Shown here piece by piece: positions 21,953 to 64,000 of a stretch of DNA of 64,000 nucleotides. This DNA is from Deltaproteobacteria bacterium (GTDB lineage: Bacteria > Myxococcota > JACPTQ01). The position numbers were made by a program, and so were the translations under genes. The notes under the pieces were generated by a model, which searched no databases, was not told where the DNA came from, and worked only from the letters and a program-made list of their open reading frames with translations. The stretch covers positions 6,611 through 70,610 of the forward strand of contig JACPTQ010000072.1 of NCBI GenBank assembly GCA_016192705.1, in the 5' to 3' direction. Position 1 is the stretch's first letter; each line of letters opens with the position of its first letter.

Positions 21953-22030
21953 TCAGTTCTTCTCAGTGTCTTCCTCTGTACCTTTGTGTCTCTGTGGTTG
22001 CATTTTCTTCTTCTTGTTCTTCTCTTCTGC

Positions 22031-34200: not shown

Positions 34201-35249
34201 TCGTCGCGTAAAACTTGTTCGGGCGATATGATCTGGCCGGACCTGCGGGTCACTGGGCCGCCCACTTCGAAGTCGTTGAACCGTCCCCGCCCCGACCCCG
34301 TAGGTTTTTTTAGCTTGGTGAATGAGGCCACAACGGCGTCGATGGCGGCGCGCATCGGAACTCCGTTTGGGTCGAGAAGGACCGGCCGCAGTTTGTATCC
34401 GACGGAGCTGTCTTCGTCGGCATAGACGAGCGGAAGGACTTGGCTCGCGACGGACGGCGCGTAGCAGCGAGCGACCGCAGCTTTGATCGCAGGGGTCCAG
34501 TCGACTTCTTTCATCCGCGACTGAAGACGCACGAGAACCTGGCGTTCGCGTCCAGGTCTGACAACGATTGGTTCCTGGAGCCGGCGCGCGAGGATTTCCG
34601 GGAGCTCTGTTTGCCGCGTCGCCTCGATGGCTTCGACGACGATCGCGCAACCGCCGATCGACGCGGGCAGACTGCCCATATAGATGTTGATTGCCTGACG
34701 CTGTGCCGTGAGGGCGATCCGCTCAACGTCCGCGAAGGTGAGTTTTTCCGCGACCATCTCGGCTTCGATTTCGTCGATCCGCTCCTTGGGGGGTGCCGGT
34801 GCCCTCGCGGCCCCCGCTCCATAGAAAACACGACGAAGGACGCCCCACTCGATGAGGTTGCGCCGCATCTTCGAGTCGCTCTGCAGCTCCTTGATGAGCG
34901 CCGTCATGATTGGAGCCACGGAGAGGTCTTGGCCGAACCCCGGGACGTTGGCGAGCGCTTTTTTCCACCGTTCAAACTCCCGCGGATCGGGCTCTCGTCC
35001 TAAGACAGTCTTGTAGGCGTACGCGGTGTTTCGACAGATGGTGCTTTCATTGTTTGGAGCGCACCCCGTGGTCGTCGCGCGCGTAAGCGCACGGCACGTG
35101 TCGTGTGTGTGCCAGGCGCACCAATCGGCGGCGCGGTCAGGTTTCCGCTGCGCTTGCACAGACGCTGGCACCGACCAAGCGAGCAAGAACGCCGGCATAA
35201 CGAGTCTGGCCATCCGAGTTTTCCACTTAAAACGTGCTGCAAACCGCAT
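28278..35249 (-). CDS. giant secreted protein (2323 aa), mostly alpha-helical/low-complexity, no recognised catalytic domain
   Basis: Uninterrupted 6.97-kb ORF directly upstream of, and co-oriented with, the gsp operon. N-terminal signal peptide (MARLVMPAFLLAWSVPASVQA). Cys-rich N-terminal module with a LGREPDPxEFERW motif, then long A/G/L/K-rich helical regions. Shares short motifs with the 828-aa protein at 52404-54890. Confidence 0.6.
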   Translation of the reverse strand: MRFAARFKWKTRMARLVMPAFLLAWSVPASVQAQRKPDRAADWCAWHTHDTCRALTRATTTGCAPNNESTICRNTAYAYKTVLGREPDPREFERWKKALANVPGFGQDLSVAPIMTALIKELQSDSKMRRNLIEWGVLRRVFYGAGAARAPAPPKERIDEIEAEMVAEKLTFADVERIALTAQRQAINIYMGSLPASIGGCAIVVEAIEATRQTELPEILARRLQEPIVVRPGRERQVLVRLQSRMKEVDWTPAIKAAVARCYAPSVASQVLPLVYADEDSSVGYKLRPVLLDPNGVPMRAAIDAVVASFTKLKKPTGSGRGRFNDFEVGGPVTRRSGQIISPEQVLRDELFEKLKANKTGFPGFKAIFGELDKLRRLYAGQVIASLFPIVRQNFPTVLGAAVHPNGRVVQAAADWIRTSPPGKWEQDIRGNWSRQSELIRALTETGLDVFKRERLCVNERYEVLYAAIKRQFPKFGFNKDPNQVAVALSKCIDGLEIVNALDLAYFHYTKVEPGLRAIFKDPSSDLLKTALAKTSNVKLTPADWQIISSRDQRRIPQSRNLANFIAPLLEKPVSDKVEAEYVRLREETVRSSLLTVFKDAITCSPQIIPAVTSSGNPFFKALLRRFSSTERLDAANVRAKLTQEQGSLLDKLKVGSPNRDAAIAALRREFATELDHYPSIAGMLLFDDASDPSRASPLRTVIKEMWGWCKGANDPAKLEKSVREKRGYFLSQLGIGAELERLKGEAVKSLIFVATAELRANYPGIAGYLMNPTLPEHPSGTRPNRALTLMRKLLDDGVGGGGPQGLRNHFATADARRKFVSESNLDSTAGTVLWMKENACISQGLAKFRAVFEPPFSRFPFEKASDFGKWVENGQGEFAKTIEALGKHVLTQFSKKDGPCAGAMVSPVTVVLNTVYSSARQIVTNLVEAKTKEFDETAARLNDCHDVAKGTLWFSFEIIRIDVETAMRHLGSGNRKDADDTLSQISSRCKGSGRGDFLPSLSFPKNLTAKEKNCTGFEQIRSLLADGDKRYDDFCANAQEALTKASKAADDRRRALEEQARREADAKAPPWEKFGKWVGKVSNGVGQMFSDPQAAMSTFNSAMSDVMVEGGSLAKGIGDGFAKVGEFTTAGLQAMGQAAVGAVTYVVDLGKNAIDFVGNSAKALWDQYGVPIAEGVKRAISDAFDTIVSPVLDQIYSAVTGPVGRLITALGQNAIDCLAGQTKVSAIEPVCGLVPPRVRVVFKDVKDFFTGAGKILDIVSSLAKIVETVTGLCPDPFAAMTSPGGKTQAIADAVNKLIDALLDQAAIMLRPALVGIVSGFVEAVLKLPVVTKTIYPPLVAMITQAVAAAGATLGGVGALLGPVAGVLSHFALNALHDTFLAPLIAEKVSDFVFDGTAIPVVNIRIPGAKELVRNFVLKPLLNQSFDALRPVLSEPLKALCKGVGAVIPLDKLRDAARKLGAITEQKEYGPGDLILAAVQRLADFAEKESNRFGDGIKFLGDVFGAWGLGMPPDLMTFAGKIATESGRRFGVELRLSCGNKQLKGGDVAALAKEVFDCIGPVALNALQESTIVSAVAEIAKGATSKSGLDAAWGAFVGSFGGFKLSFPALPGKLDELLKSGLDAGAAVFGRFVGQVCSSVTRDIGKGEGIKKFLENLFNCLGVGAQIGLAAGALDAFSGLGFGAIKGGLSSLFGALGRAIPGDFNVAAMLDKASGAAVEKFGLQIRAACVNLAFEGNDWRGAFDRFVTGVVACLRREAESALIVGRNALVKEALMKVVDAARGEGETFRLQFANLAGFFENAGLNFSLNFGGAGSVNLPDMLKGVGANIGRYGIPAMSQCLESCIGADGSKLNIGANVDWGALVSQAGSCAGTALAAAAYDGTVRWIANEARSGTLKGAVVDNIEKLASAVKLGFPKDLRDKVATLTDTGFSTFANELESNPKCKPSCGGSANFSGMLKNATECLAESLNAAAGEALKVFACSEYRKALNRTISSADDGLKAVDAFFGDARMRGVPGVSDLKSAIGKVASAGRDTFVRKASDCCENNLTRNVGATFGAVVKCTSVAAEDAVKAAGAAAQGPAATSQSPVVDPAGKWQGNANNHRFDLEIARAGSGYQLDLRFGGAGRENIDSVSFDPATRVLELRRVSPGWWQWYRLTVSANSLEGRFSNLQQAQKPNLSEFKYGVTAQRAGWPSGFASRLVRDVVPAIAGPHENPVGRQFIYRSNLEPIKNLLPEMEGSVLIQGGSGVPPVFTLTEPAIVYHTDAYDHTKCQPPGGGWTKVGTIYRASDNHPWGVYRKRVPAGRFEAARCSNNTAVFVKRIP

Positions 35250-41199: not shown

Positions 41200-41781
41200 A
41201 TGCAACCACAAAGACACACGGACACTGGGATTTTATGGAGGGGATTCTCTTTTGAGATCCACTTCCCTGTGCTTCAGCGCTCGCTGTCTCTGTGCCGCTT
41301 TGGTTGCATTTTCGTAGTCTTGTCTTGCGCCGTCCCAGCGCCGATCGACGGCCCGGCCGATGAGACGGCCGCATCGCCTCGCATCGTCTGGACAACCGTC
41401 GACCCGCCTGTCGGACTCGTGTCCATCAACCAGAGCGCGACATCGACCGAGTTTCGTATCATTCAAGTCGATGACCCGAACGTCGCCGACAAGTTGACCA
41501 TTCGATTCTTTGTCGACTACCACCGCGACACAACGATTCAACGCGAGTTCACGCTGCTCGCCGACCCCGGCTCGACGACCCCGACAATTCGCACGGGCGT
41601 GATTTTCAGTGCCCCGACCGCTCTCTTCGGGTCGAACCCCACCGCTTCGGCGCACCTCGTCGAGGCGATCGTAAGCGATCGCGGCTTTTCGGATACGGGG
41701 CAAACGACGAACATCAATCGGAACGTGCCGTCCGACGCACGCACCGATTACATCGCGTGGACCGTCCAGGTGGTCCCATGA
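41200..41781 (+). CDS. hypothetical protein, possible secreted/lipoprotein
   Basis: 193-aa ORF; hydrophobic N-terminal region with possible lipobox (VVLSC); no recognised domain. Confidence 0.3.
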   Translation: MQPQRHTDTGILWRGFSFEIHFPVLQRSLSLCRFGCIFVVLSCAVPAPIDGPADETAASPRIVWTTVDPPVGLVSINQSATSTEFRIIQVDDPNVADKLTIRFFVDYHRDTTIQREFTLLADPGSTTPTIRTGVIFSAPTALFGSNPTASAHLVEAIVSDRGFSDTGQTTNINRNVPSDARTDYIAWTVQVVP

Positions 41782-43444: not shown

Positions 43445-43660
43445 GGGTGCGTAAAAACGCCCGCCGCGCGCTCCGGTTGGCTCCGCAGCTCCGCGCTCGC
43501 AGACCTTTTGGTCTGCTCGCTCTTCGGGCGTTTCGATGATCTTACGGAGAACCGAAAATCTCAGATGCGCCCTCAGAGTCGCTGCTGCACCAACCGTGCG
43601 CGCGGCGGGCGTTTCAGCCGCCCCCAGGGGCTTCAAAAGGGCATCTCCGCACCCTGCTAA
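43445..43660. other. nested inverted repeats (about 215 bp) in a convergent intergenic region; candidate bidirectional terminator or structured RNA
   Basis: Outer gcagggtgcg / cgcaccctgc; second layer acgcccgccgcgcgc / gcgcgcggcgggcgt; third ccggttgg...gcagc / gctgc...ccaaccg; inner hairpin gcagacc-tttt-ggtctgc. Confidence 0.35.
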
Positions 43661-44130
43661 CGGCGTAACGCGCGTCGAACGTTCCGCTCCGCCTCGCGCT
43701 TCGCGGTTGCTTCACGTTTATCGAACTGCTTTTTTCCCTTCGCCAAAAAGAACTCGACCTTCGCGCGGCCATCTTTGAAGTAGAGTGCTGTCGGAATAAG
43801 CGAGAAACCTTTTTCGGCGACATCGCGCGCCAGTCGATGCAGTTCTTGGCGATGCACCAAGATTTTTCGCGCGCGAAGCGGCGTGTGGTTGTTGTACGTC
43901 GCGTTCGGGTACTCGGCAATGTACGAGTTCACGAGAAAAAGTTCGCCACGTTCAATCGCCGCGTAAGAGTCGGTGAGGTTCGCCTTGCCATCGCGAAGCG
44001 ATTTCACTTCGCTCCCCGTGAGCACGAGCCCGCCCTCGTAGGCTTCGCTCAAGAAATAGTCGTGCCGCGCCTTGCGGTTCACGCAAACGATCTTCTCGCC
44101 CTGCTTTGACGGCGGTTCCTTAGCGCCCAC
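43657..44130 (-). CDS. smpB: SsrA-binding protein SmpB
   Basis: Strong match to SmpB (GEKIVCVNRKARHDYFLSEAYEGGLVLTGSEVKSLRDGKANLTDSYA...ILVHRQELHRL...FSLIPTALYFKDGRAKVEF). GTG start chosen at 44130 to give the expected 158 aa; the ORF-track start is further upstream and overlaps the MITE. Confidence 0.8.
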   Translation of the reverse strand: MGAKEPPSKQGEKIVCVNRKARHDYFLSEAYEGGLVLTGSEVKSLRDGKANLTDSYAAIERGELFLVNSYIAEYPNATYNNHTPLRARKILVHRQELHRLARDVAEKGFSLIPTALYFKDGRAKVEFFLAKGKKQFDKREATAKREAERNVRRALRR

Positions 44131-44181
44131 GGGGCGAGTCTGCCTGAACTGTGCGGTCTGCGTCCAGGGTTCGTGCGATTT

Positions 44182-44729
44182 CCTCGATCCCCGGATAAGC
44201 AGCCAGTTTTCTTCCTTACGTAGGGTCGGCAGGTGCCGCTTCGGCGCGCCGACGTCCTCGGGTCTGAACGGACTCGCGCGACAGAGCCGCTGTTCAGAGG
44301 TAAGCGAAAGCTCGGTGATCCCAGCCAATATTGCGCTGCAGACCCTGCGGAGGCGCGCCTATGCGAGCCTCTGCCGACCCCACGCAAATCCGGGCGGACC
44401 GCTTTCCGGAGACGCTTTTTCTGGGCTTGAGGGCGGTTCGAAGAGTTCACCCGCTGGGTATCAGCTGACGATCGATCGACTCCCAAGTCTCTGAACCGAG
44501 GGTTCTGGGAAACGGCTGGTTTCTGCTTGGGCGGGCGGGGATTGGGTGAGCGGCGGCTCGCGTCCGCAGGGGATGAGGTGCCGATGGGGCGTGGGATTGC
44601 CGTTCTCATGACGCTTGGTTCATTTCGTACAGACTCACATTTCATGTCAGACCCGAGGACTTCCGCGAGCCGGAGCGAGCCCAACCCCGACCGCCCCACT
44701 GAAGTCTTCTCCGTTATCCGGGGATCAGG
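44182..44729. mobile_element. MITE-like non-autonomous element, copy 1 (548 bp) with 16-17-bp terminal inverted repeats and 9-bp target-site duplication GTGCGATTT
   Basis: Ends CCTCGATCCCCGGATAAGC ... GCTTATCCGGGGATCAGG (imperfect inverse complements). Flanked by gtgcgattt at 44173-44181 and 44730-44738. No ORF with transposase features inside. About 90% identical to copy 2, with indels. Confidence 0.6.
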
Positions 44730-44771
44730 GTGCGATTTGCGGCGTCGCGCGATCGCGCGTAACATCCGCAA

Positions 44772-46046
44772 ATGACTTCGATGCGAGCAAAACTGAGACC
44801 GGATGCGAATGCGAAAAACGTGCGAGGACTAATCCCGCTCGAGCGCGCCCCTGGACTGTTCGACGCGCTCGACGTGGATGCGTGGCTTTTGACCGATTTT
44901 CGCGCCCAAAATCCGATTGCGGCGAACGTCGTCTTGCCCCGGGGACACACGACGCGGCGCTATTTTGTGATCGTTCCGCGAACGAATGTCGCGAAGACAA
45001 AACTCCTGCTCCACCGGATCGAGGCCGATAACTTCACGAACATCGTGGGCGAGAAACGATTCTATGCCTCTCGCGCGGAGCAGGACGAAGGGCTCAAGTG
45101 GCTTCTCGCAGGCGTCCAGCGCGTTGCCATGGAGTATTCGCCCAAGGGCGCTCTCCCGTACGTTTCGCGCGTCGACGCGGGTACCGTCGATCGCGTGCGC
45201 GCGCTCGGCATTGACGTTGTCTCGTCCGAAATGTTGGTTCAGCGGCTCCTCTCGCGCTTGACGCCGGCCGGCATCGCGTCACACCGTCGCGCCGCGGCGG
45301 CTCTCCACGACATTCAGGAAGCGGCGTTCTCGCGCATTCGCCGCGACGTTCGCGCGCGACGGAAACTCACCGAGTGGACGCTCTCGAAATGGATGGCCGC
45401 GGGGCTTTCAGCGCGCGGGATGGTTTTTGACGCCGAACCGATCGTCGCGATCAACGGTAACGCTGGGAGGCCTCACTATTCACCCGACGCCACACACGAT
45501 GCTCCGATCGGCGTGGGCGATCTTGTGCTGCTCGACTTATGGGCCAAGGAGAAAACGCCGGGCGCGATCTACGCCGACATCACGTGGGTTGGCTTCGTTG
45601 GCGACCGCGTGCCAGCCCGCTACGCCCGCGCATTCGCCACGATCGCCGCAGCGCGCGACGCGGTTGTCGACCACTTGAGATTAAAAGCACGCCCCACGGG
45701 CGCCGAGCTCGATGGCGTCTGTCGCGGCGTCATTCGGCAAGCGGGGGAGGGCGCCGCGTTCATTCATCGCACGGGGCACAGCATCGACACCGACGTGCAC
45801 GGCTCGGGCGTTCACATCGACGGTTTCGAGACGCACGATTCGCGCGTGGTTGAGCCGGGCTCTCTCTTTTCGGTTGAGCCGGGCCTTTATTACGACGACT
45901 TTGGCGTACGCACCGAGATCGATGTCCTCATGACGGCGGGCGGCCCCGAGGTAACAACCGGCACACCGCAGCGCGAGATTGTTCCTTTGTTCGCCGAGCG
46001 ATCCGAGCAAAAGCGCGCTTCAAGAAAGGATGCCGCGCGCGCGTGA
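44772..46046 (+). CDS. M24-family metallopeptidase (Xaa-Pro aminopeptidase / creatinase-like)
   Basis: C-terminal pita-bread domain motifs HRTGHSIDTDVHGSGVHI, VEPGLYYDDFGVRTEIDVLMT. Confidence 0.7.
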   Translation: MTSMRAKLRPDANAKNVRGLIPLERAPGLFDALDVDAWLLTDFRAQNPIAANVVLPRGHTTRRYFVIVPRTNVAKTKLLLHRIEADNFTNIVGEKRFYASRAEQDEGLKWLLAGVQRVAMEYSPKGALPYVSRVDAGTVDRVRALGIDVVSSEMLVQRLLSRLTPAGIASHRRAAAALHDIQEAAFSRIRRDVRARRKLTEWTLSKWMAAGLSARGMVFDAEPIVAINGNAGRPHYSPDATHDAPIGVGDLVLLDLWAKEKTPGAIYADITWVGFVGDRVPARYARAFATIAAARDAVVDHLRLKARPTGAELDGVCRGVIRQAGEGAAFIHRTGHSIDTDVHGSGVHIDGFETHDSRVVEPGSLFSVEPGLYYDDFGVRTEIDVLMTAGGPEVTTGTPQREIVPLFAERSEQKRASRKDAARA

Positions 46047-46930
46047 AGCTCCCGATTCCGTGGGGGCGACTCTCGCGGCGGAATGCGCGGCAACTCGTCG
46101 CCTTCCTCATTCTCGTTGGTGTCGTGCTCTATGTGCGCTCGCTGCTTGAAGCGGACGAAAAAATTCAGTCGTGGGAACAGCCGCTCGATGTGGCGGTCAT
46201 TCAACTCACGCCGGACGAGACGCCGATTCCAGATGAGTTCACGCGCACATTTTTTGCGCCGTCAAGCTACCCGGCCGATCGCGGGACGTCACTCCACGCG
46301 ATTCCGCGCTGGCTGCGGGACGAATCGGTTCGCCTCACCGGACGCGATCGAACCCTCATTCGCTTTCACCTTTTTGGGCCGACGGTCTTTCGCGAACCAC
46401 CACCAAAGCCGAGCGACAGTTTTTTCGGGCGCATCGTCGCCGGCTTTTCGTTTCGCTCCTACTTAAAGCGCGTCGCGACGGCGGCTTCGGTCGATCTTTC
46501 AAAGTTTCTCGTGAAGCTTGTTCTCGTCTACTACTCACCCGGAAAACCCGTCGACAAACATTCCGACTCGTACGGGTCGTTTCGTGACCACGCGGGGCTT
46601 GTCTACGTGCCAACGGCGATCGCCGACATCCCTTACAACGTCGCCGAAATCACGCACGAGCTGATGCACACGTTTGGCGCGAAGGACAAATACGACGGCC
46701 GCGCGACGGTTTTCCCGGGCGGATACGCGGAGCCATTTAAGGCGCCGCTTCTTCCTCAACGCTTCGCCGAGGTGATGGCCGGTGAGATTCCGCTTGCGCC
46801 GAATCGGTTGCGCCCGGTGCGCGGACTCGACGAGCTTCGCGTGGGGCACGAGACGGCGCTTGAGATCGGTTGGCTCGATGATGAGACGGTGCGTCGGTAT
46901 TACAAGGGGGGGCGACGAACCCGCGAATAG
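46043..46930 (+). CDS. hypothetical membrane-anchored protein with HExxH motif (possible zinc metalloprotease)
   Basis: N-terminal TM (LVAFLILVGVVLYV); HELMHTFGAKDKYDG contains an HExxH motif. Confidence 0.35.
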   Translation: MKLPIPWGRLSRRNARQLVAFLILVGVVLYVRSLLEADEKIQSWEQPLDVAVIQLTPDETPIPDEFTRTFFAPSSYPADRGTSLHAIPRWLRDESVRLTGRDRTLIRFHLFGPTVFREPPPKPSDSFFGRIVAGFSFRSYLKRVATAASVDLSKFLVKLVLVYYSPGKPVDKHSDSYGSFRDHAGLVYVPTAIADIPYNVAEITHELMHTFGAKDKYDGRATVFPGGYAEPFKAPLLPQRFAEVMAGEIPLAPNRLRPVRGLDELRVGHETALEIGWLDDETVRRYYKGGRRTRE

Positions 46931-46946
46931 CTGCCGCGCAAACGTT

Positions 46947-47570
46947 TCACCGCGCAGGATTCAGGAGGCATTGCCGCAACGAGGTCGTCTCGGTAAATCC
47001 GCAGCGTCCATCCGCCTGTTCTTTGCATTCAGCGGTTTGGTAACATGCATACTGTGGTTTCCAATCGCACAACCTCGACACAATTTCCTTGCCACAGTTT
47101 TCGCTGAAGCAACCGGCCTTGAGGCACTTGCCCGGCCGGGCCGGCTTCTTGACATACCACCATCGCGCAAAGCTTGGCGAAAGGCCGCCCTCGCCGATCG
47201 TCATTCGTCCGCCGTTCGGGCTCTTCGGGTGCTCCCGAAAGTTGAGACTGAAGTGCTCGAGCCAATTGCTCTCCTTCGACGTCGGGTAAAAAGTGCCGTT
47301 GGGAATTGGACAGGGCGAAGAGTTGCATCGCAAAATCCGTTTCATTCTCTTGAAGTGAACGAGGATTTTTCCCGCGGTCTTCATTTTTATGTCGTAAACC
47401 TCGGAATACCCCGGATCTTGGATCTTTTCGAAGCAGACTTCGGCGGGCTCGGCTTCGACGGCCGTCGTCGTTTCTGCGGCGATCCAATAGCATTCCTGGC
47501 GTCCATAAGCGTTTCCAGTGAGTGCAACGAGTAATCCGATAGCAATGACAGCACCTTGGCGCATCTTCAT
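46947..47570 (-). CDS. hypothetical secreted Cys-rich protein (lower GC than surroundings)
   Basis: Signal peptide MKMRQGAVIAIGLLVALTGNAYG, about 14 Cys in 207 aa. Local GC visibly lower (about 55%) than the roughly 67% surroundings. Confidence 0.45.
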   Translation of the reverse strand: MKMRQGAVIAIGLLVALTGNAYGRQECYWIAAETTTAVEAEPAEVCFEKIQDPGYSEVYDIKMKTAGKILVHFKRMKRILRCNSSPCPIPNGTFYPTSKESNWLEHFSLNFREHPKSPNGGRMTIGEGGLSPSFARWWYVKKPARPGKCLKAGCFSENCGKEIVSRLCDWKPQYACYQTAECKEQADGRCGFTETTSLRQCLLNPAR

Positions 47571-47644
47571 CCTCCCTTTCTGAGTCGCCTCCGAAAAACC
47601 GACTTTCCCAGCAGCCCGTTAGACGCGCAAGCTCGTTCGTTTAT

Positions 47645-47968
47645 TCATCGTAGGTCGATACCCGCGAGGTCTTTGGTGAGCGTGCGCAGGTAAGCGAAAA
47701 GCTCAATGCCGCGCCCGCGGTCGTCGAACCACCGCCCGGACGGCTCGTCGTAGTTAAAGTGGATCGCCGTGTCGCGCGCGGCGAGCCAGATTTGCCGCAC
47801 GGGGCGCTGCGTGTTGATGATGCATCGGACGCCCTTCGGGTATTGGATGGTAACGACGTCCCCGGCGTTCGTCACTTCGGCGAGGTCGGGGTCGACGTCC
47901 TCGAAGCGTGCGTCGATCTCTTTCCAGGCGCTATCAACAAGCGATAAATATCGGCTTTCATCTAACAT
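47645..47968 (-). CDS. cyaY: frataxin-like iron-sulfur cluster assembly protein CyaY
   Basis: 107 aa; pattern LADSAWKEID...DVDPDLAEVTNAGDVVTIQYP...IINTQRPVRQIWLAA...HFNYDE..GRW matches the CyaY/frataxin family. Confidence 0.65.
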   Translation of the reverse strand: MLDESRYLSLVDSAWKEIDARFEDVDPDLAEVTNAGDVVTIQYPKGVRCIINTQRPVRQIWLAARDTAIHFNYDEPSGRWFDDRGRGIELFAYLRTLTKDLAGIDLR

Positions 47969-48015
47969 ACGTCTCTCCTTGCGCTACCAAAGCCCAACCT
48001 GTACATACCACTCTT

Positions 48016-48654
48016 ATGAAGGGGGCCGCGATGTCGATCAAGCACGTTATCTTTTTCTTGATAGCAAGTTCGTGGGTCAGTGCTGGTTGTAAGTCCGAAG
48101 ATTCTCGCCCCGCGTCCGACTGTTTTGGTTACACCGCGCCGCCCGGCTGGAAACCAACGAGCAAGAGCTCGGGCACCGACGGAAAACAGATCATTATTTT
48201 TGGCGAAAAGATTTATTCCTTAGGGGCGCAAAGAAACCAAGACAACTTTCTTGTTCGCTTCATTCCGTCGGGCGGATTGTCATTGCCGGGTTACAAGGAC
48301 TTCATCTTGAAGGCACTCGGCAGCGCCGACAAGATGAAAGAGACGATGAAAACGGCCGAGAAGATGCGGGCCAACGTCGGCCAATTCAAGAGTTTCGTTG
48401 ACGCGACAACAGAAATAAAAGCGCCGGTCGTCACCGACCACAAGGTGAGTGGGCGCGATGCTTATCACATCTCGTCGGAAACAGCGCTCGCCGTGGGCGA
48501 GAAACCGGTTCGCCTCATCACACGGTCGGTGCTGACGAAGTGGGGAAGCGAGTTCATCATCGCCTCGGCCGGCTACCCCGATTTTCGCGACGCCGACTTG
48601 CGCTCGCTCGCGGACGCGTTCCTTGCGTCGGTTAATTTCGATAAGTGTAAGTAG
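48016..48654 (+). CDS. hypothetical lipoprotein (lower GC)
   Basis: Start MKGAAMSIKHVIFFLIASSWVSAGC (lipobox SAGC). The ORF-track upstream extension overlaps cyaY on the other strand and is discarded. The stop lies inside the MITE copy-2 target duplication. Confidence 0.45.
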   Translation: MKGAAMSIKHVIFFLIASSWVSAGCKSEDSRPASDCFGYTAPPGWKPTSKSSGTDGKQIIIFGEKIYSLGAQRNQDNFLVRFIPSGGLSLPGYKDFILKALGSADKMKETMKTAEKMRANVGQFKSFVDATTEIKAPVVTDHKVSGRDAYHISSETALAVGEKPVRLITRSVLTKWGSEFIIASAGYPDFRDADLRSLADAFLASVNFDKCK

Positions 48655-49168
48655 TCCTCGATCCCGGGATAAGCGGCCAGTTCGCTTCTGTGCGTAGGGT
48701 CGGCAGGAGCCGCTTCGGCGCGCCGACGTCCTCGGGTCTGAACTGACTCGTGCGACAGAGCCGCTGATTAGAGGCAAGCGAAGGCTCGGTGATCCCAGCC
48801 AATATCGCGCTGCAGACCCTGCGGAGGCGCGCCTTTGCGGGCCCCTGCCGACCCTACGCAATTCCGGGCATACCGCTTTCCCGGGGACATTTTTCTAAGG
48901 CTTGAGGGCGGCACGAGGAGCTCACCCGCTGGGTGTCGGCTGATGATCGATCGACCCCCAAGTCCCTTAGCCGCCGTTTCAGGAAAACGGCCGGGTTCTG
49001 GTATCCGCAGGGGATGAGGTGCCGATGGGGCGTGGGATTGCCGTTCTCATGATGTTTGATTCGTTTCGGACAGACTCACATTTCATGTCAGACCCGAGGA
49101 CTTTTGCGAGCCGAAGCAAGCCCAACTCCGACCGCCCCACGCTGGTCTTGGCCGTTAATCTGGAATCA
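48654..49168. mobile_element. MITE-like element, copy 2 (about 515 bp), 9-bp target-site duplication GTGTAAGTA; right terminal repeat degraded
   Basis: Starts gTCCTCGATCCCGGGATAAGC; flanked by gtgtaagta at 48645-48653 and 49169-49177. Colinear with copy 1 apart from a roughly 30-bp indel and substitutions. Confidence 0.6.
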
Positions 49169-49178
49169 GTGTAAGTAA

Positions 49179-50675
49179 TCATCGTTTCGGCGCGCAGACG
49201 TCGGCTGTTTTCGCGGCGTTCCCAAATCGCGGGAGCGTCCCCTTCGTGGTTCCTGCGAGGTCTGCGCAGTTGTGGTTCTGCGGCGCCGCCTTGCTGACGC
49301 AGACGCCCCGCGCTGGCGCAACGCCTGGATCGGCGATACAGAAGGTTGGGGCTTTCCCGGCGAGGTCGGGGCATGTCCCGTTGCACGTCAGCGAGCAAAA
49401 GCCCCGCGCATGGCAGAACCCCGCTGCGCCGCTGCTCGTGAAGGCGCAATCGACCGCGGCCGTGCATCGATCGCCAACAAACTTCGCCGGCGGCGGGGGT
49501 GGCGGCGCGACACCGTTCAACTTCGGAAACGTCGCGGCATCATCCAACCGCACGAATGAAAATCCCTCGGCTTTGAGCGCAAGAATAATCGCTTCCAAGT
49601 TGTCAGCGGTGTTGTCGTGAATATCGTGGAAAAGCAGGATGCCGCCGCCTTCCTCTCTTGCTTGCGACAACACGTACGCCTTCATATCGCTGCGATAACG
49701 ATCAGGCACCCACTTGAACGTCTCCTTTTTGCACTTGCCGCCGCCCGACGAGAAGCACCAGTCGGCGCTGTCGATGTGCCAGCCGGTCGCGACGAGGCGA
49801 CGATCGCGCACAAGTTGCATGGTCGTGCAGGTCGAACTCCCGAATGGGAATCGCATGAACTTCTGCGGCTCGCCCGTTCCGGTGATGGTGGTTGCGACCG
49901 AATCGACTTCCGACGCGACCTTCGATCTCGTCTGCTGCGCGAGGTTGATGTGGGCGTACGTGTGATTCGCGAGCAAGAACATCGGGTCGTCCGCGACCTG
50001 TTTGATGATCGTGCGATCGGCTTGCGAATCGATCCACTTTCCATTGATGAAGAATGTGGCCGGCGTGTTTTGCCGCTTGAGAATGGCGATCACTTGCGCC
50101 GTCGTTTCAGGGTTGGGGCCGTCGTCGAAGGTGAGAGCGATGCGCTTGTTAAACCCTGACTGGTCAGGAACGACGACGCCCGAACACGAAGACGACGCCG
50201 CGAGGGCGATCGACACCGCCGAAAAAATGGGGGTCGGGGGGCCTGGCGGCGGCGCGGCAAGGATAAAAAACGGCAGCGCGGGTTTTGTGGGGTCGAGGAG
50301 GCGTCCCGACTTCGGGGCTTTGCGCGCCTTTCGCGACTCCAGAAGCTCCTCGTGTGCGCGTTCCCATCCAGGGGCGACGTGTTTTCGAAAACAGGCTTCG
50401 CGCGGGGGCCGTGCACGATCGAAGCATGCCTTCCGCGTTGCAACACACGCAGTTACTTTCGCGCCCGTGCACGATTTGAGCGACTCTTTGCCGCCGCATC
50501 GTTTTGCGCGCGGGCAGACCGGGCAAACGCACCGCAGAAACGCCTTCTTGCACGCACGAACCTCTTGAATGAAATCTCGTTGGCAGTGCCGATCCGCGCG
50601 GGCTTCACGAGAGCTGCCAAGGATCATCATGAGACCGGCCATAAGTGAAAGATGAAAAGACCCGTTTGCTGTCAT
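49179..50675 (-). CDS. secreted polysaccharide deacetylase (CE4) with Cys-rich N-terminal and C-terminal regions
   Basis: Signal peptide; NodB motifs IALTFDDGPNPETT, FFINGKWI, and catalytic His region LLFHDIHDNT. Confidence 0.65.
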   Translation of the reverse strand: MTANGSFHLSLMAGLMMILGSSREARADRHCQRDFIQEVRACKKAFLRCVCPVCPRAKRCGGKESLKSCTGAKVTACVATRKACFDRARPPREACFRKHVAPGWERAHEELLESRKARKAPKSGRLLDPTKPALPFFILAAPPPGPPTPIFSAVSIALAASSSCSGVVVPDQSGFNKRIALTFDDGPNPETTAQVIAILKRQNTPATFFINGKWIDSQADRTIIKQVADDPMFLLANHTYAHINLAQQTRSKVASEVDSVATTITGTGEPQKFMRFPFGSSTCTTMQLVRDRRLVATGWHIDSADWCFSSGGGKCKKETFKWVPDRYRSDMKAYVLSQAREEGGGILLFHDIHDNTADNLEAIILALKAEGFSFVRLDDAATFPKLNGVAPPPPPPAKFVGDRCTAAVDCAFTSSGAAGFCHARGFCSLTCNGTCPDLAGKAPTFCIADPGVAPARGVCVSKAAPQNHNCADLAGTTKGTLPRFGNAAKTADVCAPKR

Positions 50676-52403: not shown

Positions 52404-54890
52404 ATGCGAAAAAGGAAAGCGAAACTCTGGCTGTTGGGGGCTGCCGCCGTCGGAACTTTTCTCGGGAACGTGTCGATCGAAACGGGCCAGGTCGGCCTCG
52501 TGTCGACCGCGCGGGCACAGTTCGATCCCTGGATTCAAGTGTGCGGACCTTGGGATGGCGGGTGCTGGCCCTCCGACGGAAACTACTATGGGGATGGTAA
52601 ACGAAGATGGTTCCTCAAGGTTATCGGTTGTCAAATTGATTGGGGTAGTGACTTTACGAACCAAGGGAGACGCGATGGCTTTTTTAATTGCGTGCATAAC
52701 AACGCTAAAAAGCTCATTGACAACGCTGGGAAGGCGCTCAACGAAGGAAAAGACTGGGTGGTGAACCAGATCAAAAGTCCGTTCGGCTGCCCGCTTCGAA
52801 TCGATAACATCGGCGGTTTCCTCAACTGCCTCGGGAGAAAACTCAAAGAACAATGGGATAAGGCCGCCAAAGCGATGCAGCAGTGGGGAAGTTCCGCGGC
52901 CCAGTTCTTTGATGGTTTTATCTACGACATTATCGGGAAACCAATCGGCTGCTCGAGAGAAAACAGTCGGGTCTCCAGCTTGGCCCGCTTAGCGGAATGC
53001 GTCGGCAAAGAGATTGCGAAAAAGGGCAGCGAAATGTTCGAAGCCGGCAAGAAGACGCTCGGCGACTTGACCGGGGCTTTCGGGAAGATTGTGGAGGCTG
53101 TAAAGCAGTTCCTCGGTGCCAACCCCAAGTTTTTGGATGCGCTCAAATGTGCCATCCCGGGAGGAGAGGCTCTTGTTGCCAAGGAAGCCCAAACATTTAA
53201 GCTCGTCGAGGGAATCTTCGGTTTCATCACGAATCCCGTCGGGACCATCAAGAACTGGCTTGACTTCGGGCAGATGGGCAAAAACTTGATGGCGAAATTC
53301 GATGAAGTCAAATCGCGGGCTGTCTCGCTCATGGGTCGGGTTGGCGGCAAGTTGCAACAAGCCGGAGCGGCGTTCGGCGCCCTGCTCGAATCGCCAAAAA
53401 ACGGGGCGAGGCGCGAGGCCGTCAAGAAGCCCGTCAGGGAGGCCCTTGGTGATGTTTGGGTCGAGACAAGCGCGTTCGCAAAGAACATTCCAGGAATGTT
53501 CTGCCCCTTTACGATGGCCGAGGGCTTTGGGCTCGTGCACTTCGCGATAGATGGCGTGACGGGTCTCGTGGTGGAAGCCATCGCAAACGTCTTTGGTACC
53601 GCGAAGGACGTTTTGGACGGCGCCATTCAAAAGGTCACGGACAAATTGAAGGAACTCTTTCAACAGTTCATCAGCGGCAGGCTCCCGCTGGCGATCGCGA
53701 ATCTTCTTCCGCCCTGGCTCAAAGATGTGGGGTTATCGATCCAACGCGTGGTGGGTCAGGTGACAGGCCTCTCAAAGGACATGACATCAAAGATCAAAGG
53801 GTTTGTCCTCGACATCAAGAAGGGCGGCCAGAGTGCGCGCACGGCACTCACGCAGCTACAGGGCGTCGTCGGTTCTCTGCCCCGGCTTGATGCGGGAGGC
53901 TTTCGACTCGCGGTGCGTGCGGGCGTTGAGTTACTCAAGCAGTGGGGGCGAGGACTCATCGATGTGGAGCTTGGCAAGATTGTCGATGGCGCGCTGTCAG
54001 GTCTTTCGACATCGGTCGGCGTCTTGACGAGCGGCATCGATGCGGTTTGTGGGCTCGTTCCTTTTGTGGGTGCGGCCATCTGCGCGGCGACTATTACGAC
54101 TGGGCTTCGCGTTCTGTGGGACTGGGTGGGCGCTCCGCCGGTCAAAGAAATGGGCCTCAAGTTTGTCCGTGAAAAGATCGACGGCATCGCCGACTGGATT
54201 GGCGCAAACCTCGACAGCGGCGCTGTCGGAAGAACCACGGCTCAGATAGGCCAAACACTCGGCGGACTCCAGAATTCGCTCGGTGGGCTGTTGGACAGCA
54301 TTAAGGGATTTGTGAATACGCAGATCCTGCCTGTCGTAGAGGGCTCGCTCGGCATGAACGATCTCCTCTTTCAGCTGCCGCAGTTGCCCGCGCTGGCGGC
54401 CGGCACAGCGCCCGCGTGCCCCGCGTGTCCGTCCTGTCAACCAGCCGCCCCGTGCGCCGCGTGCAGTTGCCCAGTCGCGAGTTCGTCGCCGCAAACATCA
54501 CAGGTGCAACCGGCCGCATCTGCGCCGTCGTTTCCACCCCGCGCGCAACGGGGATGGGCGTCACCTGCGCCGTCGTTCCCACCGCTCGCGCAACGGGGAT
54601 GGGCGTCACCAGGAGCTGCCGACCTTTGGCCAGAGGTGTTTGATTGGCGATGGTACGTCGAGAACCAACCTGACTTGAAGCGAGCGCAATCCGGACAGGC
54701 CCAGGCGCAGAGACATTGGCAAAGTCACGGGATTCGCGAGGGGCGGCAGGCGCACCCGAACTTCTCGACAAAGGCCTACCTCGCGAGGTATCCGGACCTT
54801 CAGCGTGCGTTCGGTGCGACGGGCTACGCGAAGGCCCTTTATCACTATCTCAACAATGGGATCAAAGAGGGACGTAAGGGCGCGCCCTGA
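52404..54890 (+). CDS. secreted alpha-helical protein (828 aa), distant paralogue of the 2323-aa giant protein; lower GC
   Basis: Signal peptide MRKRKAKLWLLGAAAVGTFLG. Shares motifs with the giant protein (AVCGLVPFVGAAI vs PVCGLVPPRV; GAFGKIVEAVKQFLG vs GAGKILDIVSSLAKIVE). C-terminus has a 54-nt tandem duplication (SFPPRAQRGWASP x2) and a repeated HYxNNGIKEGR-like motif. GC roughly 55-57% versus about 67% nearby. Confidence 0.5.
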   Translation: MRKRKAKLWLLGAAAVGTFLGNVSIETGQVGLVSTARAQFDPWIQVCGPWDGGCWPSDGNYYGDGKRRWFLKVIGCQIDWGSDFTNQGRRDGFFNCVHNNAKKLIDNAGKALNEGKDWVVNQIKSPFGCPLRIDNIGGFLNCLGRKLKEQWDKAAKAMQQWGSSAAQFFDGFIYDIIGKPIGCSRENSRVSSLARLAECVGKEIAKKGSEMFEAGKKTLGDLTGAFGKIVEAVKQFLGANPKFLDALKCAIPGGEALVAKEAQTFKLVEGIFGFITNPVGTIKNWLDFGQMGKNLMAKFDEVKSRAVSLMGRVGGKLQQAGAAFGALLESPKNGARREAVKKPVREALGDVWVETSAFAKNIPGMFCPFTMAEGFGLVHFAIDGVTGLVVEAIANVFGTAKDVLDGAIQKVTDKLKELFQQFISGRLPLAIANLLPPWLKDVGLSIQRVVGQVTGLSKDMTSKIKGFVLDIKKGGQSARTALTQLQGVVGSLPRLDAGGFRLAVRAGVELLKQWGRGLIDVELGKIVDGALSGLSTSVGVLTSGIDAVCGLVPFVGAAICAATITTGLRVLWDWVGAPPVKEMGLKFVREKIDGIADWIGANLDSGAVGRTTAQIGQTLGGLQNSLGGLLDSIKGFVNTQILPVVEGSLGMNDLLFQLPQLPALAAGTAPACPACPSCQPAAPCAACSCPVASSSPQTSQVQPAASAPSFPPRAQRGWASPAPSFPPLAQRGWASPGAADLWPEVFDWRWYVENQPDLKRAQSGQAQAQRHWQSHGIREGRQAHPNFSTKAYLARYPDLQRAFGATGYAKALYHYLNNGIKEGRKGAP

Positions 54891-55203: not shown

Positions 55204-57672
55204 ATGTCTCGATTCGTTTTCGTGACCGTCGCGCTCTTCGCGGCCGTTGGGTGTGGAAGTAAAGGGGAGAAGGGGGAGATGGGGACGAATGGGTCAGCGG
55301 GTCCGGGGGGCGACGCGGGACCAGAAGGCGCCGCGGGTCCCGCGGGCGATGCGGGTGCGACGGGTCCAACCGGTAACGCGGGTCCGTCGGGAGACGCCGG
55401 GGCCGCGGGAACGCCGGGCGCATCGGGCGGCACCATAACGGGATCGGTGAAGGACACGAACAACGCGGGCCTCGTGGGTGCCACGATCTCGACGAGCCCG
55501 ACGTCATCGTCGACGGCGAGTGACGTGAGCGGAAACTTCTCGCTCGCGTCAGTTCCGAACGGCGTCTTCACCGTCATCGCGACGTTGGCCGGTTACGGGG
55601 CGTCGAGCGTGACGGGCGTGAGCGTGACGGCGGGTGGTTCGACGAGTGCCGCGTTCGTGCTTTACTTGGCGGACGGCGGGTTTGCGTCGATCAGCGGGAC
55701 GGTCAAGAACACGGCCGGCGCCGCCATTGCGAACGCGACGGTCAGCGTATCGGGCGTTGATGCGTCCGCCGTGACCGCCGCCGACGGAACGTACACCATC
55801 ACAAACGTCCCCGCGCCCGGGCCCTATTTCCTCGACGTCGCGCCGCCAACGAACGACGCCGATGCGGGGTATTTCGCCGGCGACACCCGCGTGAGCCTTC
55901 TTCTCACGCGCGCGTCACACACCGACGCGAGCATTATTCTGTCTGCGCGACCTTCGAGCGCGGCAACGTACATCGGAACGTCGCTGTGCGCCCTGTGTCA
56001 CGCGGTGGTCGGTGACACGACGATTGTCCCCCGACATGCGTCGGCTGGGCATTGGCGCTCCTTGAGCCTCGATGGCGGTGAGCGCTTCGTCTCGACGAGT
56101 CTCTGGCCGAGCGTGGGTGCGACCGTCGACACCGGAAAATACGCGCAAGATCCAAACGGCGTGAAATATGACGCGGGGAACGGCGGCAGCGGCTGGAACC
56201 GCGTTTACCTGTGCCAAAACAGCGCGGGCTCTTACGCGATGATGTTCGGCCCAAACCCCGATGCGGGTGTCGACGCTGGGTGCACCGGCGCTGGGGGCAC
56301 GACCCAGGGAATCGTTATCCCGGTCGCGGGAACGTACGGCGGTGAGGGCGATCGGTCGACGTGGGATGGCGGGATTGTCGCGAACCTAGGAAAATTCAAG
56401 CAACGATTCTTCGCGCGGGTCAACGATGTCGATTCGGGGACCGGGTGGACTTACACCGCTGGAAAAGACAAAGACCTTCTCGTCCTACCCGTGCAGGTCA
56501 CGCAGTCCGGCGATGGATACCCCAAGTTTGACGTGTACAAAGAAACCGAATGGGCGAACCGCAATCGAACGTTCGCGTACGCGTGCGCGGGATGCCACAA
56601 CACCAACATGAACATCGTGTGGGACCAGGCTGGCGGCAGCGACTACATCACGAGTTACGCGTACACCGACCTCAACGTCGGCTGCGAGAAGTGCCACGGC
56701 CCGGGCTCCGAGCACGTCGCGGTGGGTGGCGGTTTGGCCAAGGCGATCATCAACCCGAAATACTTGACTGCGGACCGCGAGCGCCAGGTGTGTGGGCAGT
56801 GCCACTCGGGTGACGACGGAAAAAACGAGGGGAGCCAGAAGAAATACGGTTACGCGTACAACCTGAATTACGCCGACGCGGGCGCGACGTACATTGGGCG
56901 AGGGACGTACGTGCCCGGGTTCTACGACATCAGCGAGTTCATTTCGAACCTTGACGGCGGTGCTTCTTTCAACGCATGGGCGACGATTTTCGGCACGAAG
57001 ACGTGGGGCAAGGCGCACCGCCAGCAGTACGCGATGCTGCTCAAGTCGAAGCACGTGAACAACACGACGCGGCGAATGACGTGCGCGAGTTGCCACGACG
57101 TTCACAGCACGTACCAAGGTCCGAAGGCGCACAGCGTCACGTCGGGGAGTGACACGTTTGTGTTCGAAACGCCGAGGTTCAACAACAACGTGCTTTGCCT
57201 CTCGTGCCACGCGGGGAGCGGCGAGTTCGCGACGATGGCGACGAGCGACGTCGCGGCGATTCAGGTCGGCGACTCGAGGGTTGTTTCGAAGAACGGGACG
57301 AACCAGAGCTTTACGGCGGGCGAAATAGCGTCGGCGCTCGAGCGCGTCGGAGATGTGGTTGAAGGCCATATGAACAACAAGGCAAACATGGGTTTCTTCG
57401 TGATGTACGACCCTGAGCGCGAGCCAGGCGTTGGGCGCTGCATGAACTGCCACATGCCGCGGACGGCGAAGAGCGGCGGCTATACGACGGGCGTTGATGA
57501 ATTCGGCAAGACGGCGCTTATCGAAGGCGACCAGGGGTCGCACGTGTTCGACGTCATTCGGCCGCAGATGAGCCGCATCATGACCGACGGCGGCGTCTCC
57601 GACACGGCCGTCATGCCGAACTCGTGTGGCCCGTGCCACGCGCGCTATCGCTTCAGCGGCGACGGGCAGTAA
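55204..57672 (+). CDS. lipoprotein: collagen-like (Gly-X-Y)20 segment + carboxypeptidase-regulatory-like beta domains + octaheme c-type cytochrome domain
   Basis: AAGGAGG SD 7 nt upstream of ATG. Lipoprotein signal MSRFVFVTVALFAAVGC. 20 uninterrupted GXY triplets (GSKGEKGEMGTNGSAGPGGDAGPEG...GTPGASGG) at about 55255-55435. Eight CxxCH motifs (CALCH, CAGCH, CEKCH, CGQCH, CASCH, CLSCH, CMNCH, CGPCH). Confidence 0.7.
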   Translation: MSRFVFVTVALFAAVGCGSKGEKGEMGTNGSAGPGGDAGPEGAAGPAGDAGATGPTGNAGPSGDAGAAGTPGASGGTITGSVKDTNNAGLVGATISTSPTSSSTASDVSGNFSLASVPNGVFTVIATLAGYGASSVTGVSVTAGGSTSAAFVLYLADGGFASISGTVKNTAGAAIANATVSVSGVDASAVTAADGTYTITNVPAPGPYFLDVAPPTNDADAGYFAGDTRVSLLLTRASHTDASIILSARPSSAATYIGTSLCALCHAVVGDTTIVPRHASAGHWRSLSLDGGERFVSTSLWPSVGATVDTGKYAQDPNGVKYDAGNGGSGWNRVYLCQNSAGSYAMMFGPNPDAGVDAGCTGAGGTTQGIVIPVAGTYGGEGDRSTWDGGIVANLGKFKQRFFARVNDVDSGTGWTYTAGKDKDLLVLPVQVTQSGDGYPKFDVYKETEWANRNRTFAYACAGCHNTNMNIVWDQAGGSDYITSYAYTDLNVGCEKCHGPGSEHVAVGGGLAKAIINPKYLTADRERQVCGQCHSGDDGKNEGSQKKYGYAYNLNYADAGATYIGRGTYVPGFYDISEFISNLDGGASFNAWATIFGTKTWGKAHRQQYAMLLKSKHVNNTTRRMTCASCHDVHSTYQGPKAHSVTSGSDTFVFETPRFNNNVLCLSCHAGSGEFATMATSDVAAIQVGDSRVVSKNGTNQSFTAGEIASALERVGDVVEGHMNNKANMGFFVMYDPEREPGVGRCMNCHMPRTAKSGGYTTGVDEFGKTALIEGDQGSHVFDVIRPQMSRIMTDGGVSDTAVMPNSCGPCHARYRFSGDGQ

Positions 57673-57676
57673 GCGG
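57484..57676. repeat. direct repeat A (3' end of the cytochrome gene), about 93% identical to 58648-58840
   Basis: Aligned by eye. The two copies bracket the hydrolase gene; period 1164 bp. Confidence 0.85.
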
Positions 57677-57731
57677 GAGCCCACGTCCACGCCGTTGATG
57701 ATGAGCCCGTCGGACGCGCTATAATGGCGCG

Positions 57732-58622: not shown

Positions 58623-58647
58623 ACGAACCGCGACGAGCGGTGGATGG

Positions 58648-58840
58648 ACGACGGGCGTTGATGACTTCGGCAAGACGGCGCTCATCGAGGGCGACCAGGG
58701 GTCGCACGTGTTCGACGTGATTCGGCTGCAGATAAGGCGCATCATGACCGACGGCGGCGTCTCTGACACGGCCGTCATGCCGAATTCGTGTGGCCCGTGC
58801 CACGCGCGCTATCGCTTCAGCGGCGACGGGCAGTAAGCGC
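58648..58840. repeat. direct repeat B: orphan copy of the cytochrome gene 3' end (encodes ...GVDDFGKTALIEGDQGSHVFDVIRLQIRRIMTDGGVSDTAVMPNSCGPCHARYRFSGDGQ*), a gene fragment
   Basis: About 13 substitutions relative to copy A; retains the reading frame, final CxxCH and stop codon, but has no start. Confidence 0.85.
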
Positions 58841-58871
58841 GCGCGGAAGCGGGGGCGGTAGCGATCTTTCC

Positions 58872-62905: not shown

Positions 62906-62906
62906 C

Positions 62907-64000
62907 CTATTCGCCCGAAATGAAAGTGGGTGTTGAACGCGAAATGTTGTCTCCCGTCCCAAGTACGCCATAGTAGTTATCGCCCCAGCACTTCACCGCG
63001 CCTTCAACGGTGAGAGCGCAGGTGTGCCAGTGGCCGGTGGCAATGGCGGTAACGCCCGACGACAGCCCGCTTACCGACGTCGGTGTGGAAAACGAATATC
63101 CTCCCCAACACAACACGCCGCCATCCGACGTTAAGGCGCAGGTTTGGTACGGAGCTGCGGAGACCTGGGTGACGTCGGTAAGTCCCAACACATCGACGGG
63201 CGCCAGGCGATTCGTCGTCGTTCCGTCGCCAAGTTGACCGTAATCGTTTTTGCCCCAGCACTTGACGCGACCGTCTACCATGCGTGCGCAGGTGTGCGTT
63301 GAGGATGCGGCGAGCGTTGAAACGCCGGAAAGCCCGACGACATCGACAGGTGTTAAACGTATGGTCGATGTGCCATCACCAAGCTGCCCAACGTTGTTCG
63401 TTCCCCAACATTTGACGCCACCGCCTTGCATCACCGAACAGACGTGTGTTGAGCCAGTCGCGATCGATTTGGCGCCGGCGACGTCGACAACGTCCGTCGG
63501 TCTCGATCGACTCATCCACGTTCCGTCGCCAAGCTGACCGGTCCCGCCGTAGCCCCAGCACTTCACGCCACCGTCTGTGGTCAATGCACATGTTGAAACG
63601 CTGCCCGCTGAGACCTGGACGACCGGCTCGGTCAATCCGACGACATCGATCGGCAAGGGGTATCTGCCGCCCGAAGTCCCGATGCCAAGCTGACCGTCGC
63701 CGTTACTCCCCCAACATTTGACGCCACCGCCACTCGTCACCGCGCACTTGTGGTCGCCAGCGACTGATGGAACGAGAACGCCTCCGTCGAGACCCTGGAC
63801 ATCGACGGGTATATTGCGGTCCATGTATGTGCCGTCGCCAACCTGGCCGTAATAGTTTCGTCCCCAGCACTTGGCCCCGCCGTCCCCGATCAAAATGCAT
63901 GTCCCGGATTCGCCGGCCGAGACCGCCGTTGCGCGGCAGCAGCCGCCCCCACACTTCACGAAGCCGTCGTCACACTTGGACGTGCATTGTCCGCTTCGAC
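62907..64000 (-). CDS. RCC1-repeat (beta-propeller) protein, N-terminus beyond window end
   Basis: Seven or more repeats with (Y/V)GQLGDGT signatures (NYYGQVGDGT, GDGQLGIGT, GTGQLGDGT, NNVGQLGDGT, NDYGQLGDGT). The reading frame stays open to the window edge. Confidence 0.7.
   Translation of the reverse strand, partial: RSGQCTSKCDDGFVKCGGGCCRATAVSAGESGTCILIGDGGAKCWGRNYYGQVGDGTYMDRNIPVDVQGLDGGVLVPSVAGDHKCAVTSGGGVKCWGSNGDGQLGIGTSGGRYPLPIDVVGLTEPVVQVSAGSVSTCALTTDGGVKCWGYGGTGQLGDGTWMSRSRPTDVVDVAGAKSIATGSTHVCSVMQGGGVKCWGTNNVGQLGDGTSTIRLTPVDVVGLSGVSTLAASSTHTCARMVDGRVKCWGKNDYGQLGDGTTTNRLAPVDVLGLTDVTQVSAAPYQTCALTSDGGVLCWGGYSFSTPTSVSGLSSGVTAIATGHWHTCALTVEGAVKCWGDNYYGVLGTGDNISRSTPTFISGE

Follow-up and report, generated by a model that had tools for sequence, protein, structure and literature searches.

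What are the two similar sequences of about half a kilobase that enclose a 3.9-kb block of genes in a Myxococcota contig, and did the block arrive with them? Both lie in a 64,000-nt stretch (hereafter the window) of contig JACPTQ010000072.1, from the Deltaproteobacteria bacterium assembly GCA_016192705.1. An original prediction, made from the letters of this DNA, had described them as copies of an element resembling a MITE (miniature inverted-repeat transposable element), and the whole arrangement as a composite acquired island mobilised or delimited by MITEs. As detailed below, both sequences very probably represent one family of non-autonomous DNA transposons, i.e., MITEs, a reading suggested at first by terminal inverted repeats, 9-bp target duplications and the lack of a transposase, and now strengthened by an empty site in a related contig. 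The island does not survive in the same way: the 3.9-kb block is best read as part of the resident chromosome, with an insertion by chance on either side of it.

Boundaries and internal organisation of the two copies

The two copies are colinear direct repeats in the same orientation, 4.5 kb apart. They and the features at their ends are listed here, in coordinates of the window.

44182..44729, plus strand: element copy 1, 548 nt, GC content 0.626, in the gap between the divergent smpB and M24 peptidase genes
44173..44181, no strand: left target-site duplication of copy 1, GTGCGATTT, a 9/9 repeat of 44730-44738
44730..44738, no strand: right target-site duplication of copy 1, GTGCGATTT, a 9/9 repeat of 44173-44181
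44182..44198, plus strand: left terminal inverted repeat of copy 1, CCTCGATCCCCGGATAA
44714..44729, minus strand: terminal inverted repeat at the right end of copy 1, reading CCTGATCCCCGGATAA as reverse complement
48656..49170, plus strand: element copy 2, 515 nt, GC content 0.616, in the gap where the plus-strand lipoprotein gene and the minus-strand polysaccharide deacetylase gene converge
48645..48655, no strand: target duplication on the left of copy 2, either GTGTAAGTA (48645-48653) or, in the register of copy 1, GTAAGTAGT (48647-48655)
49169..49179, no strand: target duplication on the right of copy 2, either GTGTAAGTA (49169-49177) or, in the register of copy 1, GTAAGTAAT (49171-49179)
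49156..49170, minus strand: degenerate right terminal repeat of copy 2, TTAATCTGGAATCAGT, matching its own left terminus at 11/17 positions

Over 513 aligned columns, the copies are 86.5% identical, with 69 mismatches (44 transitions and 25 transversions) plus a single 34-nt indel. The colinearity and the indel of roughly 30 bp that had been noted before are thus both found, while the identity is slightly lower than the earlier figure of about 90%. A two-copy nhmmer profile matches exactly 44182-44729 and 48656-49170 in the window, and the terminal motif and two internal motifs are confined to these same two copies, with counts that none of 100 shuffles attain (0/100). The longest identical block between the copies measures 49 nt (longest identical run, P = 0.037). 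Along the element, conservation is not significantly uneven by window variance (P = 0.19), and selectively conserved internal blocks were rejected on this basis.

One argument for transposition comes from the boundaries. Homology between the copies ends exactly at inverted termini flanked by 9-bp direct repeats, and no sequence is shared by the flanks of copies 1 and 2 outside the element, as judged by alignment. In copy 1, the ends CCTCGATCCCCGGATAA and TTATCCGGGGATCAGG match at 16/17 positions with one indel and are bordered by an exact 9-bp duplication, in full agreement with the original description of inverted termini of 16-17 bp. Copy 2 is flanked by GTGTAAGTA, also as first described, which gives a duplication of 9/9; set in register with the ends of copy 1, the duplication is read as GTAAGTAGT and GTAAGTAAT and matches at 8/9 positions, both readings being equally good. 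The terminus can be written as the pattern CCT(C)GATCCCSGGATAA. Every observed duplication begins with GT, which hints at a target preference, and the target sites hold 3-4 G/C in 9 positions, within a genome of 61% GC. Of note, a 13-nt near-match to the terminus, GATCCCGGGATAA, is present at 32952-32964, inside a very large minus-strand open reading frame (ORF) of 2323 aa (28278-35249), and looks like a chance occurrence.

The dimensions and content of the copies are also those of a MITE. Bacterial MITEs are defined as elements of 50-600 bp that have terminal inverted repeats, lack a transposase, produce a duplication of the same length as that of their parent insertion sequence (IS) and are mobilised in trans (PMC6382973), and copies of 548 and 515 nt fall inside this range. 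Copy 1 has the only long ORF (230 aa, minus strand), which the 34-nt indel disrupts in copy 2, and no ORF is common to both copies. No Pfam match was obtained for the ORFs of the element at E <= 0.1, nor did a six-frame pseudo-protein of the element or the 230-aa ORF find any protein homolog among 5.8 billion clustered proteins or, in a second library, 1.84 billion cluster representatives. The proposal that neither copy encodes a transposase is therefore borne out.

Inside the inverted termini, the element has a more elaborate architecture. The inverted repetition extends, imperfectly, over ~86 nt at either end, and a module of ~50 nt is found three times per element, for a total of six aligned instances, with the consensus GCGTrGGGTCGGCAGG..GC.CGC...GGCGCGCC...GTCCTCGGGTCTGA, of which GTCCTCGGGTCTGA is exact in 4/6 instances. 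In element positions, module A lies forward at ~37-86, module B is inverted at ~157-204 and module C is inverted near the right end:

44218..44267, plus strand: module A of copy 1, ~50 nt, ending in GTCCTCGGGTCTGA (six-module alignment and motif scans)
44338..44385, minus strand: module B of copy 1, inverted, pairing with A and closing a ~170-nt hairpin
44647..44699, minus strand: copy 1 module C, inverted and close to the right end; 31 nt at 87%, forming with A the extended ~86-nt terminal inverted repeat
48692..48741, plus strand: module A of copy 2 (six-module alignment and motif scans)
48812..48859, minus strand: module B of copy 2, an inverted repeat of 21 nt at 95%
49088..49141, minus strand: module C of copy 2 (six-module alignment and motif scans)

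An internal 15-bp complementarity had been singled out earlier as a conserved long-range pairing. It does exist, but it is perfect in copy 2 only (48692-48707 with 48844-48859) and carries two mismatches in copy 1, and the better account of it is that it forms the centre of the A/B pair, within a module found three times in each element. An arrangement of subterminal modules in both orientations corresponds to the layout expected of transposase-binding sites, and the modules are thus candidates for such sites.

Taken together, these features suggest the following scenario. A transposase encoded elsewhere would recognise the inverted termini of 16-17 bp and, probably, the ~50-nt subterminal modules as well, and would move the element by inserting it at a 9-bp staggered cut, presumably through DDE-type chemistry; repair of this cut would then leave the 9-bp direct duplication. 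Two separate insertions would have taken place, that of copy 1 into the short divergent smpB/M24 intergenic region, and that of copy 2 exactly where two abutting convergent stop codons met. Action of the transposase in trans, DDE-type cutting, modules that serve as protein-binding sites and further copies elsewhere are all inferred.

An empty site, contig ends and copy number

Independent support for insertion comes from a 4.2-kb metagenome contig (L008; JGI 3300045072), the only close relative that was found, whose M24 protein is 81% identical to that of the window and whose DNA is 72-81% identical to it. There, smpB and the M24 gene are divergent and 117 bp apart, with no element between them. 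With the element and one copy of the duplication taken out, the window can be aligned colinearly with L008, which holds a single target copy, cACGATTT, at the homologous point. From this alignment, the smpB-M24 gap of L008 reads as a clean empty site. For the right-hand insertion, no close relative provides a corresponding empty site: the non-self homologs of the deacetylase are at most 60% identical, and the long loci L016 and L017 are not syntenic. The sequence expected at an empty lipoprotein-deacetylase junction is ...AAGTGTAAGTAATCA...

Whether the family has more members was addressed with Logan contigs (k = 31) from the same strain. Contigs that approach copy 2 from the left end at 48738 in four samples, and one contig ends at 57651. 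In both cases the end falls exactly 29 nt inside a 31-mer block that recurs in the window, and contig ends can therefore be read as repeat branch points. Contigs that approach from the right end at 49131 (four samples) and at 44702 (three samples), and no repeated 31-mer in the window accounts for either of these two ends, which would place their partner sequences elsewhere. One partner is implied to be identical to copy 1 through 44731, i.e., over the last 29 nt of the element and the flanking GT, and another to copy 2 through 49160. Further copies of the element are the simplest reading of these ends, as the data suggest. Of note, one of the contigs, L002, carries at positions 1-19 the Nextera/Tn5 mosaic-end adapter AGATGTGTATAAGAGACAG; this odd 19-nt end is an assembly artefact and was rejected as a variant of the locus.

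Several observations weigh against the MITE reading. Allelic variation inside the element could also create branches in the assembly graph. A third copy was found by nhmmer neither in the rest of the 64 kb nor in ~130 kb of other loci. In genome and metagenome scans, the exact 22-mer GTGCCGATGGGGCGTGGGATTG, taken from the 49-nt identical block, gave nothing but chance hits across 185,579 species genomes and 241 million records from metagenomes: there was one per collection, in L001 (a Verrucomicrobiia coding sequence) and in L007, with nothing shared beyond the 22 nt. The family is therefore rare, or else the 49-nt block is poorly conserved. No parent IS was found in the window or in plasmid, phage and viral collections; there are no matching termini elsewhere in the window, blastn of the element against plasmids and phages gave no match, and searches of viral contigs with the terminus, the module and a gapped pattern returned only three chance 16-mer matches. 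Bacterial MITEs are usually described as AT-rich (PMC6382973), a soft feature that these copies do not share, with GC contents of 0.626 and 0.616 versus 0.610 for the window. Finally, with 13.5% divergence between the copies and a decayed terminus in copy 2, the element may no longer be mobile; both insertions are fairly old, and one has a decayed end.

Alternative readings and the genes between the copies

The alternative that fares best is compatible with a MITE and holds that the element carries a functional, strand-specific structured RNA, serving either the biology of the transposon or the host, for instance as an exapted terminator or insulator. This is unlikely, but part of the folding signal does point that way. 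On the plus strand, the whole element is more stable than its shuffles (z = -4.6 and -3.8), and the central domain beats shuffles on this strand only (z = -2.9 and -1.9, versus -0.9 and -0.65 on the minus strand). A helix of ~39 pairs, joining element columns 128-170 with 383-426, needs 6-7 G-U pairs and can thus form on the plus strand only. In addition, randomly placed substitutions would disrupt more plus-strand pairs than do those observed between the copies (P = 0.037 and 0.008), with no such effect on the minus strand, and both copies share the same orientation. However, the full-length minus strand folds about equally well (z = -4.6 and -4.2). Most of the fold stability can be traced to features of the DNA, namely the inverted repeats of the termini and modules, and better-than-shuffled folding of both full-element strands is what inverted DNA repeats are expected to give. 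Double-sided compensatory changes number only 1-3, about half of the changed pairs are broken, and a covariation test has little power with two sequences. The lack of significantly uneven conservation along the element also argues against such an RNA, and a promoter scan found no promoter-like site inside it.

A known RNA family had been named as a finding that would overturn the MITE reading, and a scan of both strands with Rfam 15 returned no match inside either copy, at gathering score or at E <= 10. This result leaves the MITE standing and at the same time speaks against the suggestion that the element may be transcribed into a structured RNA; of that suggestion, the plus-strand-specific folding signal is what remains, a weak lead that comes from two sequences only. 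In its most specific form, selection would maintain a ~300-nt plus-strand RNA domain that combines the A/B hairpin with the 128-170/383-426 helix and that acts in transposition or as a host-exapted insulator or terminator. The odds of this are slightly longer still; if true, it would mean that Myxococcota-like bacteria harbour a mobile RNA module dispersed by a transposon of the DDE type.

The second alternative concerns the genes. Annotation of the region by Pfam and direct reading confirms the contents of the block as first listed (M24 peptidase, HExxH membrane protein, Cys-rich secreted protein, cyaY and lipoprotein), and gives the following order, in which copy 1 lies between smpB and the M24 gene, and copy 2 between the lipoprotein and deacetylase genes:

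43657..44130, minus strand: smpB, start at 44130
44772..46046, plus strand: M24 peptidase, start at 44772 or 44781
between the M24 and secreted-protein genes: 295-aa HELMH (HExxH) membrane protein, ordinary GC content
46947..47570, minus strand: 207-aa secreted protein with 12 Cys
between the secreted-protein and lipoprotein genes, minus strand: cyaY
48031..48654, plus strand: 207-aa lipoprotein
49179..50675, minus strand: polysaccharide deacetylase

In the composite-transposon reading, both elements and the 3.9-kb block would have been acquired, or would move, as one unit. Copies in direct orientation do bracket a block, and pairs of MITEs with cargo between them are known from other systems. 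Within the block, the two genes at 46947-47570 and 48031-48654 show GC contents of 0.546 and 0.543, i.e., ~0.545, versus 0.610 +/- 0.031 for the window, which places them about two standard deviations low, at about the second percentile. Calling them clearly lower in GC, as was done originally, is correct as to the sign of the difference, but the dip is modest: about six other places of the window fall below 0.55, and the M24, HExxH and cyaY genes have ordinary values (0.605-0.632). If a unit moves whole, a single duplication is left, at the outer ends, and composite transposons are recognised by this (PMC6382973). The two copies described here have separate 9-bp duplications, GTGCGATTT for copy 1 and GTGTAAGTA for copy 2, with none common to the two outer ends, which speaks against a composite unit. 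The outer (right) terminus of copy 2 is decayed to 11/17. L008, in turn, keeps smpB, the M24 gene and the start of the next gene contiguous and in the same order without the left element, from which it follows that at least the left 1.5 kb of the block predates the insertion of copy 1. The original prediction had called for a comparison with related genomes to see whether the island is present or absent, and in this relative it is the left element alone that is missing, not the start of the block. With separate duplications, this gene order, the decayed right end of copy 2 and a modest GC dip, the composite island is largely refuted and very improbable as an account of the locus.

Even less probable is a local segmental duplication, or a pair of att-like direct repeats left by site-specific recombination, which would have in its favour that only two copies were seen directly, 4.5 kb apart and in direct orientation. 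Nevertheless, both copies end in inverted termini, with a 9-bp duplication that differs between them, the flanks share nothing outside the element, L008 has a clean empty site, no integrase or recombinase is encoded within the block and the copies are 13.5% diverged. The independent target duplications, together with the empty site, refute this reading. Lastly, a template/variable pair of a diversity-generating retroelement was rejected, as substitutions of every type occur (44 transitions and 25 transversions), rather than changes at the adenines of one copy only, and the gene annotation shows no reverse transcriptase nearby.

The placement of the copies among these genes also fits the MITE reading. 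Both insertions lie in non-coding gaps and the neighbouring ORFs are intact. At copy 2, the stop codon TAG of the lipoprotein gene (48652-48654) falls within the left target copy, as had been noticed from the start, and the right target duplication abuts TCA at 49179-49181, the minus-strand TGA of the deacetylase gene. The reconstructed pre-insertion site reads ...AAG TGT AAG TAA|TCA..., where TAA is the lipoprotein stop and TCA that of the deacetylase; on this reconstruction, the two stops must have abutted before insertion, with no spacer. The 9-bp duplication regenerated both stops, the left one now being TAG, and thus neither gene was damaged. The nearest named homologs of the deacetylase come from Kofleriaceae and Myxococcales metagenome-assembled genomes.

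At copy 1, 51 nt of contiguous sequence remain upstream of smpB. On the other side, immediately to the right of the insertion point, the window and L008 share a conserved segment (44737-44765 and L008 2696-2734, respectively) that contains TTGCGr-N17-TAACAT, about 10-20 nt upstream of the M24 start that both sequences conserve (ATGCGAGC at 44781). This block matches the sigma-70 consensus at 7/12 positions and was not flagged by the promoter scan; if it is the M24 promoter, the target duplication preserved it.

Other repeats in the window and relation to known systems

The window contains several further repeats. A 300-nt direct repeat (26360-26659 and 26932-27231; 93% identical, spacing 572 nt) spans the 5' ends and upstream sequences of two adjacent minus-strand ORFs, in a lower-GC patch, and a 221-nt direct repeat (57460-57680 and 58624-58844; 92%) covers the 5' ends of adjacent minus-strand ORFs of 424 and 377 aa; one Logan contig breaks at the latter. 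A 41-nt motif, CCTCTsT..CT.TG.GTCTCTGTGGTTGCATTTTCTTCTTC, is found in five instances that are 66-73% identical to the reference copy (21973-22013, 26501-26541, 27073-27113, 41279-41319 and 62872-62912). The instance at 21973, at least, lies just upstream of a minus-strand ORF, and the motif may be a common leader or promoter of paralogous genes. Within the minus-strand ORF 62907-63959, five to six coding repeats of ~150 nt (62959-63906) give, in reverse-complement translation, a GQLGDG/CWG-like pattern, which may reflect propeller repeats of the RCC1 type. Finally, a 45-nt tandem duplication (54512-54601; 87% identical) lies in an 828-aa ORF that has no Pfam match.

If the two copies are indeed MITEs, they would define a new, undescribed family that is unusually long and GC-rich, in a poorly sampled, uncultured lineage; for one gene of the block, a single contig is the only close relative in 5.8 billion clustered proteins. 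The genes between the copies, including cyaY and the M24 peptidase gene, would then belong to the resident chromosome and not to a mobile island. Such elements also break short-read assemblies, as all Logan contigs of the region stop inside them, and copy 2 illustrates how a 9-bp duplication lets a transposon land between abutting stop codons while harming neither gene.

Among known systems, MITEAba12 of Acinetobacter shares several properties with the element described here: it is non-coding, has inverted termini, makes a 9-bp duplication in relatively A+T-rich targets and is presumed to be mobilised in trans (PMC6382973). It differs in being only 111-114 bp long and in having termini that match those of a co-resident parent, ISAba12, which itself makes a 9-bp duplication (PMC6382973). 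The present element, in contrast, measures 515-548 bp, has a GC content of 0.62 and contains three ~50-nt modules, and no parent turned up for it in the window or in plasmid, phage and viral collections. Duplications of 7-9 bp are made by the IS1016 group of IS1595 as well (PMC12561309). Assignment to an IS family draws on the type of transposase, the likeness of the termini and the duplication length (PMC12561309). With the IS families that duplicate 9 bp, the element has this length in common, and it is compatible with several of them, among which are the IS1/IS4/IS5-like candidates of the original prediction. Such duplications are also made by members of the IS4 (IS10/IS50), IS5 (IS903 group), IS1, IS256 and ISAs1 families, while the IS1595 group usually makes 8-bp duplications. 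The terminus CCTGATCC resembles the IS1595-group end CcTGATT and contains an IS10-like CTGA...GATCCCC, which is taken here as a lead only, with no family assigned.

Closer in size are the plasmid-borne Acinetobacter MITEs of 439 and 502 bp (PMC6382973). In their case, two copies likewise bracket a few kb of genes, which is the arrangement that the original prediction had in mind; here, each copy has its own duplication, and L008 lacks the left copy while keeping the start of the inner block. Pairs of the 439-bp MITE flank an integron, and the pair and its cargo behave as one unit. Another parallel is provided by the Correia elements (CREE) of Neisseria, which are ~100-155 bp long, duplicate TA and are present in hundreds of copies. 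They are intergenic and self-complementary, form hairpins when transcribed and can affect neighbouring genes. The element described here resembles them as an intergenic miniature inverted-repeat element with extensive self-complementarity.

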